From contig OZ244852.1 of NCBI GenBank assembly GCA_965220965.1, forward strand, positions 824,621-888,620: a stretch of DNA of 64,000 nt. Reading direction: 5' to 3'. Under the pieces are notes generated by a model. The model was not told the DNA's origin. It did not search any database and saw nothing but the letters and a program-made list of their open reading frames with translations. Shown here piece by piece: positions 49,601 through 52,841 of this stretch. The DNA is from Candidatus Marinacidobacterium sp. Lineage in GTDB: Bacteria; Acidobacteriota; Vicinamibacteria; Marinacidobacterales; Marinacidobacteraceae. Position 1 is the first letter of the stretch. Every line of letters begins with the position of its first letter. The translations under genes were made by a program, and so were the position numbers.

Positions 49601-50161
49601 CTCGCCGAACGCAAGGAGCCGGGACGCGAGAGCCGGGAGGGGCAGGAGGGCTCGTCCGGGCAGCAGGGTGAGGCGCAATCCGGAGAGGGCCAATCTGGCG
49701 AGGGGCAGTTCGGGGAAGGACAGGCCGGCGAGGGGCAGCCCGGGGAAGCGGCCTCCCGGCAGGCCGATGGGCGCGGTGGAGGCGGCGGCCCCGGCGGATC
49801 CCGCAACGAAGTCCGCCAGCTCCGGAGCGAACTGGACCGCCGGGTCCGCGACGCCGAGGCGCTCCGGCGCGAGATGACCGGCATCGGCGCCTCCGGGGAG
49901 TTCGGCGCCGAGCGGCTGGATCAGGTCGCCGCCGCGCTCAGGGGACTGAACCCGGAGCGGCTCATCGGCGACCCCCGGGGCATGGAGATCCTCGAGGCCG
50001 AAGTCCTCGACACCCTGCGCGAGCTCGAGTTCGACCTGAGGCGGGCGCTCACCGGCGGCGAGGTCGCCGATGTCCTCACCGGGGACGCCGGCCGCGCCCC
50101 CGAGGCCTACCGCGAGATGGTCGAGGAGTACTTCCGCAACCTGAGCCGCAACCCGGGGTAG
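46616..50161 (+). CDS. DUF4175-like giant membrane protein with a long coiled-coil region and a Gly/Glu-rich pentapeptide repeat
   Basis: N-terminal transmembrane helices, a beta-rich middle, then extensive coiled coil (…LERLAELARRQEQENERLRR…) and a GEGQx×5 repeat near the C-terminus; 1181 aa. Terminal gene of the Bat-like cluster. Confidence 0.6.
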   Translation: METLGLDPTPRSPFEPTPGERYEELIRVIRRVRSRWRTRRLLLGGAALAVAGVVLVGGSSAILEAARYAPWAVRGLAALTWTLLAIAVWRFVARPLRSRVSDRRVALYVEEHDPTLREAVISGVELGKELDHKGGARPGFSPELTRLVVEEAIRRCEEMDAGRNIETGGLRRAAGALATAVGVAFVASILAPSDLWRGVSLLVAPWGDIDDRNPYRVLVEPGDAAIARGSDMWISATLEGFDTERVDLHLQAADGEGWEVLGMTPDPEAGGFRHLLLGVPEATDYFVDADGVRSPTFRIEVEDAPYVARIGVRYEYPAHTGLTPREVEEGGDLVAVGGTRVTLHVESTIPASSGVLRLDPGEEELPLVPVAPDEEAAPAGSRPAMTAELVLRESGAYRISLAGPDGALRTASRDYRIEVLEDLPPIVRFLRPGRDLTSSPVEEVFTEVAAEDDFALDRVEIRLSVNGGEESGFVLASGGARSEVQSGHTIFLEEHDLVPGDLVSYYALARDGAGAESSTDMYFVAVRPFDRTYRQADAMPGGGGGAGGGEGLDGTLTLRQRQIVVATFKVLRDRERMTDAAVSETVATLGLAQGRLREQVGTLNRRLQNRGIGLSPEFGEIVQHLDAGLIEMTAAEESLVGGDPEAALPREQKALTHLQRADAVFRDVQVAFNQGGGGGGGGGAPPQAEDLADLFELEMDKLRNQYETVEQSQRASSDNEVDEILERLAELARRQEQENERLRRGMQAPPGAGGGNGQDQLAAETEDMARRLERLARERSRPDLAAVSRRLREAASEMRAANSRNPGEGLESGMSAASSLRGARRDLDRGRRDRLARDVESAEEEAKRLRSAQDRIRSAVQDLEGERTRQAVDAISEQKEELVERVQDLERRLDEVSRDWSGDEPEAARAVGAAADGIRDRKLKEKIHYSRGVAAQRSTDYADQFEEMIGRDLEALEEDLASARRAVEGSDRAEQDSVLERAESLVRGLEAMRNRLAERKEPGRESREGQEGSSGQQGEAQSGEGQSGEGQFGEGQAGEGQPGEAASRQADGRGGGGGPGGSRNEVRQLRSELDRRVRDAEALRREMTGIGASGEFGAERLDQVAAALRGLNPERLIGDPRGMEILEAEVLDTLRELEFDLRRALTGGEVADVLTGDAGRAPEAYREMVEEYFRNLSRNPG

Positions 50162-50440
50162 CCGGCCTGCCCGCGGTTACAGTGCGAGTGCGGAACAAGA
50201 CGGCGACATCGAGCGGCGAGGCGGCGGGAGTCCCACAGAGCCTCCCTTGGTGACGGGTTGGAGGGCGGAGCGCGACGCCATCCAGTCGAACCAGGCTCAG
50301 CTTGCGGTGACTCGGCTCCGTTGTGAGCGACCATCGGACCTCCAGACACTGCGACGGCGTTCCTTTTGTGGTCGTGGGATGCGGGCCGCCTTGGGACACG
50401 ATCTTGACCTCGATGAGTCAGACGAAATGAACTCTCAGCC

Positions 50441-52132
50441 GTGATTCGCGGAGTGTGGAGCGACTTCGGTCGGTGGAAGGATGGTTGGGATGAAATCCAG
50501 ACAGTGGGCGGCGGTGGACAGGGGAACGGTTACCGTGCGCGTCGCCAGTCAGATGGCCGGGAGGCCTTCGTCAAGGTGATCAAGTCCAAGCGCGACGCCG
50601 AGCGTCGGAGACGCTTCTTTCGCGAGGCGACAGCCTATGACACGGTTCGCAGCAGTGGCGTTCCGCGACTGATCGAGAGCAACGCCCATCTCCACGAAGC
50701 CGCAGAGATCGAGCCGTATATCGCGACAGAGTTCATCGAGGGGCCAACGTTGAGAATCTGGCGGGACGGACGGCATGAGGTTGAACTCGCCACCGCCCTA
50801 AGATTGGTCCGGTCTCTCCTCGCGGCGATCGGCGACTGTCACCACGGCGGTGTCGTTCACCGCGACATCAAGCCAGACAACATCATCCTGAGAGGTGGGA
50901 ATCCGTCCCAGCCTGTGCTTCTGGATTTTGGCCTGAGCTTCAAGGTGACGCAGACCAGTGAGGCCGTGACCGAAGACGGGCAGGAAATCGGCAATCGTTT
51001 TCTGCGCTTGCATGAGCTCTCCGCCGGTAGTCAACTTAAGCAGGATCCCCGGTCGGACTTGTCGTTTGCTGGTGGAATCCTGTTCTACTCCCTGACGGGC
51101 AGGAATCCCGACATCCCAGAGGATGCGGAGGGTCGTCTCCCTCACCAACGGAGGGATGTGCGTTCGCAGCTTCGACACATCGCCGGTGAGCGGTTGGAGC
51201 GGTTGCTGTCCATATTCGACAGCGCCTTCGCACCAAGAATCCACGACCGGTTCGTGAACGTCGAGGCAATGGTTGCAAGTCTGGAGAACCTCACGGAATC
51301 GCGGCGTGTTGTGGTGGGCACGTTGGATCATGATCGAGACGCCATCCGTGAGGCGTTGAACACTGCGTCGGCACAGCGGTCATCAGAGAGTCTTGACAGA
51401 CTCACGCACGCTCTCGAAGAGCTGCATCGAGTTGACGATGAAGCAGCGACGTGGTTGGACTGTCCTCTAACTCTGACACGAGGCGGACGGCACGTAGATG
51501 CCGACTTGGGAAGAAACACTGTGTCCTGGCGTAAGCGAGGAATGACCGACGATGTGTTACGAGTACAGCAGGAGGTCCGGGAGGTAGGCGGTGAACTCGT
51601 CATCAAGCTGTCGGGCGAAGCGGTCTGGCGGACGGCGGTGAACGCACCGACGTATGGAGAGTGCTTTGCCGAGAGAATTCGGAGATGGCTGGTCGGGAGA
51701 CTCCGCGAGGCTATCGCGAATCCGGAGGCGCTGCCGCCCGAGGCCAGCTATTTCCAGGAAGAGCCGCCGCTCGGGTCGCTAACGGAAGCGCAGGAGCGAG
51801 CGCGCCGAGAGGACCGCCACGTTCTGGCGTTCGTGTATGACCCGGCGCAGAAGGAGCGCGGCGAACGCGGCAAATTGGAGTGGTGTCTGAGCAACTTCCT
51901 TGAGAACCGCAGGACGCGCGAAACGCTCCGCGCAGCGTTTGTTCTAGCGCTCGTGCCACTGTCTCAAGTAAGTGCGGTCACAGACGAGCTCAGTGGCGAG
52001 TCGATGGAGACTTCACGCTGGGTCGTCTTTGATGCGGACCTCGCACCCAAGCGGCACGAAGTCATCTATGCGAACCCGCAGATGGCGGAGAGTCTCGCCG
52101 GTGAGCTGTCCGACGAGTTCGGTCGCCGATAG
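50441..52132 (+). CDS. Hanks-type Ser/Thr protein kinase with an uncharacterised roughly 270-aa C-terminal domain, encoded in a low-GC island
   Basis: Gly-rich loop VGGGGQGNGY; Lys region FVKVIK; catalytic loop VVHRDIKPDNIIL; DFGLS. GTG start. Local GC is about 58–60% against about 72% in the flanks. Confidence 0.7.
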   Translation: MIRGVWSDFGRWKDGWDEIQTVGGGGQGNGYRARRQSDGREAFVKVIKSKRDAERRRRFFREATAYDTVRSSGVPRLIESNAHLHEAAEIEPYIATEFIEGPTLRIWRDGRHEVELATALRLVRSLLAAIGDCHHGGVVHRDIKPDNIILRGGNPSQPVLLDFGLSFKVTQTSEAVTEDGQEIGNRFLRLHELSAGSQLKQDPRSDLSFAGGILFYSLTGRNPDIPEDAEGRLPHQRRDVRSQLRHIAGERLERLLSIFDSAFAPRIHDRFVNVEAMVASLENLTESRRVVVGTLDHDRDAIREALNTASAQRSSESLDRLTHALEELHRVDDEAATWLDCPLTLTRGGRHVDADLGRNTVSWRKRGMTDDVLRVQQEVREVGGELVIKLSGEAVWRTAVNAPTYGECFAERIRRWLVGRLREAIANPEALPPEASYFQEEPPLGSLTEAQERARREDRHVLAFVYDPAQKERGERGKLEWCLSNFLENRRTRETLRAAFVLALVPLSQVSAVTDELSGESMETSRWVVFDADLAPKRHEVIYANPQMAESLAGELSDEFGRR

Positions 52133-52349
52133 GTCGGTACCAACGGGCCTGGTCCGGCGTCTGCTCGCGATGCCGTCCGCTGCTGTTGGGGTACAGGCCT
52201 CGCTCGAACGATCCCCGACGCCGGGCGGCCCGTGCGATGCGGGGGCTCCATCTCCGTCCGACGCGCAGGCGCAAAGCGCCGCGGATGAGGCACCCGGTCA
52301 CGGGATGTCCCAGACTCGCCTCGGCGGGCTGGCGGCGTCCCGGCCCCCG

Positions 52350-52841
52350 TCAGGACGACGTGTGGTCGTGGGCGATCCGGAGGCCCTCGGGGGTCTTCTC
52401 GAAGAGGAGCGTGAAGAGGCCGGTCGGGGCGTCGGCCTCGCGCTCCAGGTTGTAGCGCCCGAACACGAACACGAACTCCGGCGACAGCACCCGGATGTCG
52501 AGGTCGGAGAAGTGGAGCTGGCCCATGGCGGCCCGGTCGGGGTAGTTGGTCTGGTAGCGCTCGAGCAGATCCGCGGTTCCCATCCGCACCGTGTTGCCCG
52601 AGACGAACCGCATCCGGGGTGAGTCGAGGTAGTCGCTGACGAAGGTCGGCAGGTCCCCCTCGTTCCAGGCCCGGGTCTGGCGTTCGAGCACCTCGCGGAC
52701 TTCGGCGGCGAGGGCGTCGCGCTCCTCGGTCGTGAGCGCGACCCGGGTCGGGGCGGCGGAGGTGGTCTCCGGCGGGGCCGCGCCCGGCCCGGCGCAGGCC
52801 AGCGAGAGCAGCAGGAGCGAGGCGGGAAGAACGTGTCGCAT
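52350..52841 (-). CDS. SnoaL-like/NTF2-fold (DUF4440-type) lipoprotein
   Basis: Lipobox LLSLAC. The region …RDALAAEVREVLERQTRAWNEGDLPTFVSDYL…RMRFVSG… is typical of SnoaL-like domains. Confidence 0.55.
   Translation of the reverse strand: MRHVLPASLLLLSLACAGPGAAPPETTSAAPTRVALTTEERDALAAEVREVLERQTRAWNEGDLPTFVSDYLDSPRMRFVSGNTVRMGTADLLERYQTNYPDRAAMGQLHFSDLDIRVLSPEFVFVFGRYNLEREADAPTGLFTLLFEKTPEGLRIAHDHTSS

Follow-up and report, generated by a model that had tools for sequence, protein, structure and literature searches.

A foreign one-gene insertion in 'Ca. Marinacidobacterium' encodes a long-form PD-T4-6-family kinase with a probable role in phage defense

The 64-kb window analyzed in this study, meaning the whole stretch taken from contig OZ244852.1 of a 'Ca. 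Marinacidobacterium' genome, carries a Ser/Thr kinase gene at positions 50441..52132 of the forward strand. An initial annotation, made from the letters alone, had described a solitary gene for a single 563-amino-acid (aa) protein, and this description held. The open reading frame (ORF) begins with GTG, a start backed by the N-terminal alignment with an Escherichia coli homolog (MIRGVWSD vs MVGGVWND), and PADLOC and BLASTP assign its product to the long form of the PD-T4-6 family. The neighboring genes encode BatA/VWA, DUF4175, DUF4440/SnoaL and Band_7 proteins. All of them are conserved in relatives that have no kinase at this place, and none showed a phosphatase, FHA or PASTA domain. An exact-sequence look-up in public assemblies returned no record of an identical protein.

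The locus stands out by its composition. As annotated initially, it coincides with a GC dip, and this dip includes the lowest 1-kb GC content of the whole window (0.59 vs a background of 0.72; z ~-3.9 relative to the rest). In 400-bp windows, the GC content was 0.575-0.64 over ~50200-52200 and 0.70-0.77 on either side. The GC content at third codon positions (GC3) was 0.69 in the kinase gene vs 0.87-0.95 in seven neighboring genes.

Relatives of the locus were recovered by means of the HflK-like neighbor, which yielded ~30 metagenome-assembled genomes (MAGs) of Vicinamibacteria or 'Ca. Marinacidobacterium' at 75-87% identity. The gene order DUF4175 (Bat-like), DUF4440/SnoaL, HflK, HflC was preserved in ~24 of them, and tblastn detected the kinase in none of these ~24 syntenic genomes. 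Since DUF4175 and DUF4440/SnoaL are conserved there without the kinase, the flanking genes lie outside the insert. The junctions were mapped by blastn against eight relatives with an empty site. Nucleotide homology stops at 50136-50174 and restarts at 52332-52360, delimiting an insert of ~2.15 kb (50175..52331) that stands in place of an intergenic spacer of 28-157 bp. The segment of 50170-52140 proposed at the outset is therefore real, with its limits moved to ~50175-52331, and the comparison of flanks shows it to be an insertion. Thus, a foreign one-gene segment was inserted between the conserved DUF4175 and DUF4440/SnoaL genes of a Vicinamibacteria ('Ca. Marinacidobacterium'-like) host. Atypical codon usage, absence from syntenic relatives and the junctions mapped at empty sites support the horizontal acquisition of the kinase gene.

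The Hanks-type kinase domain comprises residues 1-285 (50441..51295, forward strand). Pfam matched Pkinase at residues 18-223 (E 8e-20) as the sole domain of the protein; after residue 223, no PASTA, transmembrane, FHA or other Pfam domain was found. The expected motifs are all present, namely the G-loop GGGGQGNG, K45 in AFVKVIK, HRDIKPDN at 140-147 and DFG at 162-164, and the Hanks motifs were invariant in 121 homologs. The residues invariant in this alignment are K45, E62, H140-R141-D142, K144, N147, D162-F163-G164, E192, D206 and R270. This is the sequence of an active kinase, and by its retained residues the window protein is catalytically complete. A full-length AlphaFold2 (AF2) model built with 50 sequences had a mean predicted local distance difference test (pLDDT) score of 86.4. 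The kinase domain scored mostly >85, and the activation loop (167-183) was disordered.

The protein matches the PD-T4-6 model PDLC04063 of PADLOC over its full length (residues 4-560 vs profile positions 6-558 of 564, E 7.4e-196). Because PADLOC over-calls PASTA kinases (see below), the PD-T4-6 label alone proves little, and homology to the validated protein was therefore compared directly. Validated PD-T4-6 (RRM76169.1 of E. coli UMB0949) is a 436-aa protein annotated as an S/T kinase and encoded by a 1311-bp single gene, and it protects E. coli against phage T4 (Vassallo et al. 2022, Nat Microbiol). The plasmids of that study include a Lys-to-Ala mutant of PD-T4-6, and its authors describe mutated conserved residues of four systems as essential for protection. 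The PD-T4-6 mutagenesis primer encodes RAFL(K>A)VLKSQKDP, in which AFLKVLKS aligns with AFVKVIKS of the window protein, the motif that contains K45. With this primer as a probe, the PD-T4-6 gene was located in five complete E. coli genomes. In strain A37, the homolog (WP_164842056.1, 432 aa) lies between the tail-sheath and tail-fiber-assembly genes of a P2-like prophage. This position fits the second P2 hotspot, which contains fun, described by Vassallo et al. 2022.

BLASTP aligned the window protein with the 432-aa E. coli homolog end to end (residues 1-426 vs 1-432, 35% identity, E 3e-75). The best PADLOC model of the E. coli protein was PDLC04046, and the second was PDLC04063 over positions 8-423. 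The matches of the two proteins to each other's model reach through the post-kinase domain. When a profile of long-form residues 281-563 was aligned by hhalign with the last 144 aa of the E. coli homolog, the probability was 95.8% (E 7e-9, 123 columns). Judged by these alignments, the window protein is a genuine PD-T4-6 homolog through both domains of the validated protein.

The region behind the kinase domain had been described as ~270 aa without a recognizable domain. This stands at the level of Pfam, which returned only noise for residues 285-563 at E values up to 10; a PDB sequence profile search with the C-terminal half also gave no match. The description does not hold for structure prediction. 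The AF2 model of residues 281-563 reached a pLDDT of 88.9 and contains two confidently predicted domains. The middle domain (residues ~295-426; 51323..51718, forward strand; pLDDT ~90) consists of a long helix, a five-stranded antiparallel beta-meander and another helix. It has no Pfam or PDB sequence match of its own, and the hhalign result shows its homology with the C-terminal domain of E. coli PD-T4-6.

The C-terminal module (residues ~445-560; 51773..52120, forward strand) is predicted to adopt a thioredoxin fold with the topology beta-alpha-beta-alpha-beta-beta-alpha, and it is absent from validated E. coli PD-T4-6. Thioredoxins have a cis-proline ahead of beta-3. The window module has no CXXC, no conserved cysteine and no proline in the stretch before beta-3, and is therefore not a redox enzyme; by the same features it differs from Thioredoxin_7, DsbH, DUF255, AGR and UAS-type domains. 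Across 121 sequences, residues 427-563 contain no conserved cysteine column, and the position equivalent to CXXC is occupied by the invariant D467-P468-x-Q470. A redox-active domain, an idea prompted by C482, was rejected; cysteine is found at that position in only 18 of the 121 sequences. Further invariant residues of the module are R476, G477, S521-M522-E523, R526-W527, A544-N545 and Q547. The resulting DPxQ / RG / SME / RW / ANPQ patch on the former active-site face suggests a conserved binding face. UAS domains are non-catalytic, and by analogy the module is probably a binding module as well. An imperfect 9-nt tandem duplication (GAGCGCGGC / GAACGCGGC; 51854..51871, forward strand) adds E472-R473-G474 in the loop that matches the thioredoxin active site. 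This insertion is unique to the window copy, the other 120 of the 121 aligned sequences having a gap there.

An exhaustive profile search with the module alone retrieved 115 cluster representatives among 1.84 billion and no ordinary thioredoxins, indicating a narrow family rather than a generic thioredoxin. Beyond long-form kinases and their fragments, the module follows a NACHT/NB-ARC NTPase (P0197, 832 aa; L090:4256-6754) whose gene has an integrase, Mu-like transposases and an RHS toxin as its neighbors on the two sides. It also stands behind a transmembrane helix and a coiled coil in two small proteins (P0147 and P0148), and it forms a tandem pair in P0133. That a defense kinase and a STAND NTPase share it suggests a sensor or adaptor that is portable. 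PDLC04063 matches P0197, P0147, P0148 and P0133 through the module alone and is thus a possible source of false PD-T4-6 calls. Our literature searches found no report of this thioredoxin-like module in defense.

In summary of the comparison with validated PD-T4-6, the window gene is likewise a single gene with the AF[LV]KV[LI]KS lysine motif in an N-terminal Hanks-type kinase and a homologous post-kinase domain, and both the E. coli and the window genes are foreign low-GC cargo. The window protein differs by its length (563 aa vs 432-436 aa), the ~135 extra C-terminal residues forming the thioredoxin-fold module, and by its fit to PDLC04063 instead of PDLC04046. Its host is an acidobacterium, and the gene lies outside any prophage. 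The PD-T4-6 family is already known, and its long form is already modeled by PADLOC as PDLC04063. The novelty is modest: the validated protein represents the short architecture only, and what the long form has in addition is a redox-dead thioredoxin-like module, also present in other proteins of the conflict type.

Many family members of ~560 aa share 47-59% identity with the window protein. The few homologs with a named organism all belong to Proteobacteria, with full-length ones in Cupriavidus, Sphingomonas and Brevundimonas. One homolog (P0001) resides in an integrative mobilizable element with an integrase, relaxases and AlpA; two others (P0017 and P0006) lie in regions rich in insertion sequences (IS). 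At L086:5526-8004, the start of the P0003 kinase gene (57% identical, also 563 aa) overlaps the end of a ParA-like and ParB_N-like gene pair, and an integrase follows. Possibly, this locus represents the type of integrative element by which the window copy arrived; its ParA-like protein weakly matches the PADLOC candidate PDC-M28B. In Sphingomonas, a homolog (P0109) is part of an island with Shedu, Gabija and a methyltransferase; another homolog adjoins a SymE toxin gene. The window copy is an orphan insertion; the settings seen for its homologs are the hotspot of a P2-like prophage, integrative elements and the Shedu/Gabija island. Long-form kinase genes have a GC content of 0.57-0.61 (L082, L083, L084, L086, L088, L089, L001) vs 0.58-0.66 in the host loci, and the short-form E. 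coli gene has 0.42 in a background of 0.52. Apparently, the family retains a composition of its own as it moves. In tblastn searches of plasmids and phages, no full-length homolog was found. All matches were confined to the kinase domain except one, on an Oscillatoria plasmid (77% match, 32% identity).

We consider it likely that the window gene is a horizontally acquired single-gene anti-phage defense kinase of the PD-T4-6 family in its long form. A link to anti-phage or abortive-infection kinases had been anticipated by the initial annotation; it is strengthened by the full-length homology to a validated defense protein and by the homologs in mobile elements and a defense island. No housekeeping sensor domain, no synteny of the gene across relatives and no host-typical codon usage were found. 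The mechanistic model was adopted from Stk2, a stand-alone eukaryotic-like Ser/Thr kinase of Staphylococcus epidermidis/aureus that, activated after phage DNA injection, phosphorylates host proteins broadly and thereby kills the cell (Depardieu et al. 2016). Stk2 is not among the best 25 of the 35 PADLOC families matching the window protein. The likeness is in the kinase fold; to the extent tested, the C-terminal regions show no relationship. By analogy with Stk2 and with the Lys dependence of PD-T4-6, we infer a defense function in the host, sensing by the C-terminal region and an abortive outcome. In the uninfected cell, the kinase would be kept inactive. The C-terminal region, comprising the beta-meander domain and the thioredoxin-like module with its invariant patch, would recognize a phage-derived protein or an infection-induced state, and recognition would free the kinase. 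Once free, the enzyme would phosphorylate Ser/Thr residues of host and/or phage proteins, and phage reproduction would be blocked. The infected cell would probably pay for this with growth arrest, and the infection would be aborted.

A more far-reaching proposal is that the long form is a functionally distinct PD-T4-6 subtype. Its module would be an undescribed portable sensor or adaptor of prokaryotic conflict systems, shared by kinases, a NACHT/STAND NTPase and membrane-anchored coiled-coil proteins, whose DPxQ...RG...SME.RW...ANPQ face binds a phage trigger or a small molecule and gates the effector. We put this forward as tentative and regard it as rather doubtful.

Several observations weigh against the assignment of the window gene to phage defense. 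The protection experiments cover the E. coli short form, so that defense by the window copy and the other long forms is assigned by analogy; the E. coli homolog is only 35% identical, and the validated protein has no thioredoxin-like module. Literature searches found no mechanistic study of PD-T4-6. In the full-length AF2 model, the predicted template modeling (pTM) score is 0.61 and the domain packing is uncertain, which makes autoinhibition a conjecture. The window copy has His instead of a near-invariant Pro in the LPEL (APE-like) motif (P191H; codon 191, 51011-51013), a change unique among 121 homologs, and the ERG insertion in the thioredoxin-like loop is likewise its own. Both changes could impair function, and an attenuation of the window copy is conceivable. 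Its borders show no integrase, tRNA or convincing repeats. In Cupriavidus (L084:9698-11011) and Sphingomonas (L089:9698-11008), a co-transcribed gene for a ~436-aa partner overlaps the stop of the kinase gene, and such a gene is missing from the window. The two partners are 73% identical to each other and have no Pfam or PADLOC match, and their kinases share 47-48% identity with the window protein. Kinase and partner may together form a two-gene version of the system; the loci of the four closer homologs lack the partner, as does the window. Finally, the PD-T4-6 models of PADLOC also pick up the housekeeping PASTA kinases that all Streptococcus thermophilus genomes contain.

The residence of homologs in integrative or mobilizable elements and IS clusters would also suit a selfish or inter-element conflict gene, that is, a toxin-like kinase that stabilized or defended its carrier element, for instance by addiction or by exclusion of competitors, and is now stranded in the chromosome. 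The homolog beside the SymE gene, the prophage location of the E. coli copy and the loss of any vehicle from the window copy are in line with this. However, comparable cargo of prophages and elements was shown to defend the host against T4, one homolog sits in the chromosomal Shedu/Gabija island, and an element-borne defense system is still a defense system, so that the two readings largely overlap. We hold a purely selfish role to be unlikely. Somewhat less likely still is that the insertion is real and the gene no longer functional. P191H and the 3-aa ERG duplication, which deviate from 120 homologs, the lack of a recognizable sigma-70 promoter and the absence of remaining mobility genes would fit inactive, decaying cargo. 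In contrast, the ORF of 563 aa is undamaged and fits the family profile from end to end, every catalytic residue is kept, the AF2 model is confident, and a sigma-70 scan is weak evidence in an acidobacterium with 72% GC. Among the alternatives, only these two retain appreciable probability.

An effector directed at eukaryotic host signaling is very improbable. The relatives are uncultured MAGs labeled 'Ca. Marinacidobacterium' or Vicinamibacteria, some of whose isolate names presumably point to marine invertebrate hosts, a setting in which a eukaryotic-like kinase could act on host signaling. In NCBIfam, the effector kinases LegK1 and XopAU are matched weakly and far below threshold (21 bits vs a cut-off of 550 and 13 bits vs a cut-off of 450, respectively). 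Moreover, the gene occurs in no related genome, no secretion-associated genes lie nearby, and full-length homologs are found in Cupriavidus, Sphingomonas, Brevundimonas and an E. coli prophage. We give even less credence to a housekeeping PknB/Stk1-type signaling kinase mislabeled by PADLOC. The S. thermophilus calls show that such mislabeling happens, and the best NCBIfam match is indeed NF033483 (PASTA kinases, PknB_PASTA_kin). Yet this match reaches 94 bits vs a cut-off of 450 and covers the kinase domain only, PASTA, transmembrane and FHA domains are missing, the gene is conserved in no relative and has foreign codon usage, and the post-kinase domain shares homology with its counterpart in the validated defense protein. 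A component of a multi-gene system of the Mad6 or PglW type has no appreciable probability. MADS Mad6 and BREX PglW match the kinase domain in part (mad6 E 1e-23 in PADLOC; MAD6 69 bits and PglW 41 bits in NCBIfam), but the scores are far under the cut-offs of 460 and 990 bits, and no partner genes are adjacent.

The gene is preceded by a non-coding region of 279 bp (50162..50440, forward strand; GC 0.649), which presumably carries its own promoter. No sigma-70 consensus site was found in it, the consensus scan being of little weight at this GC content, and an Rfam scan of the region gave no match. Downstream, the kinase gene and the convergent DUF4440/SnoaL gene are separated, stop to stop, by non-coding DNA (52133..52349) with a host-like GC content of 0.75. 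The sole terminator-like site of the scanned stretch falls within the kinase coding sequence, and none is present in 52133..52349. The 64-kb window contains no tRNA genes that might serve as integration targets. Candidates for an att site or a target-site duplication were rejected, since the flanking direct or inverted repeats are short matches only, the best of 12 nt, and are not statistically convincing. The exact 12-nt direct repeat TGTGGTCGTGGG occurs on either side of the kinase gene, at 50367-50378 and 52361-52372. The left copy is located inside the mapped insert junctions, and the right copy falls within the SnoaL gene at its 3' end, in sequence homologous to the empty-site relatives. 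This repeat is probably due to chance and not a target-site duplication.

The spacer that received the kinase is a variable site in this lineage. It is empty in the eight relatives used for junction mapping, and in ten others (L004, L005, L006, L010, L013, L015, L016, L021, L032, L041) the Bat-like/SnoaL spacer contains a gene for a ~460-aa secreted M28 peptidase with host GC. Three relatives have differing unannotatable ORFs there (L009:8338-8985, L023:8737-9549, L024:8003-9316), with a GC content of 0.65 vs 0.73 in the flank for the L023 insert. A defense hotspot was rejected on present evidence, the other occupants having no PADLOC match. A replacement of the M28 peptidase by the kinase was also rejected; the window holds no peptidase remnant.

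The kinase segment is not the sole compositional outlier of the window, as a second low-GC stretch extends over 58.4-63.1 kb (GC 0.61-0.65, GC3 0.72). There, 6 kb from the kinase, the reverse strand (58482-63116) encodes a 1544-aa DEAD/Helicase_C/MZB protein that matches PADLOC DruE1, the Druantia signature helicase DruE (E 1.3e-143). Its distribution is patchy: among ~35 syntenic relatives, only L012 and L014 have such a gene, at 52% identity. A neighbor of this kind is in line with a defense role of the kinase. Upstream partner genes would fall at or past the end of the window.

For the defense field, the gain is modest, the family being known and its long form already in PADLOC. For specialists, the recurrence of a redox-dead thioredoxin fold in a STAND NTPase hints at a sensing module that can be reused, and the dissection into three domains gives concrete constructs for studying how such kinases are triggered. 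For the organism, what was annotated as a lone eukaryotic-like kinase becomes a specific, testable defense-gene call in a poorly studied, uncultured acidobacterial lineage. With sister genomes that retain the empty site, the locus provides a clean, dated case of what is probably the acquisition of a single-gene defense.

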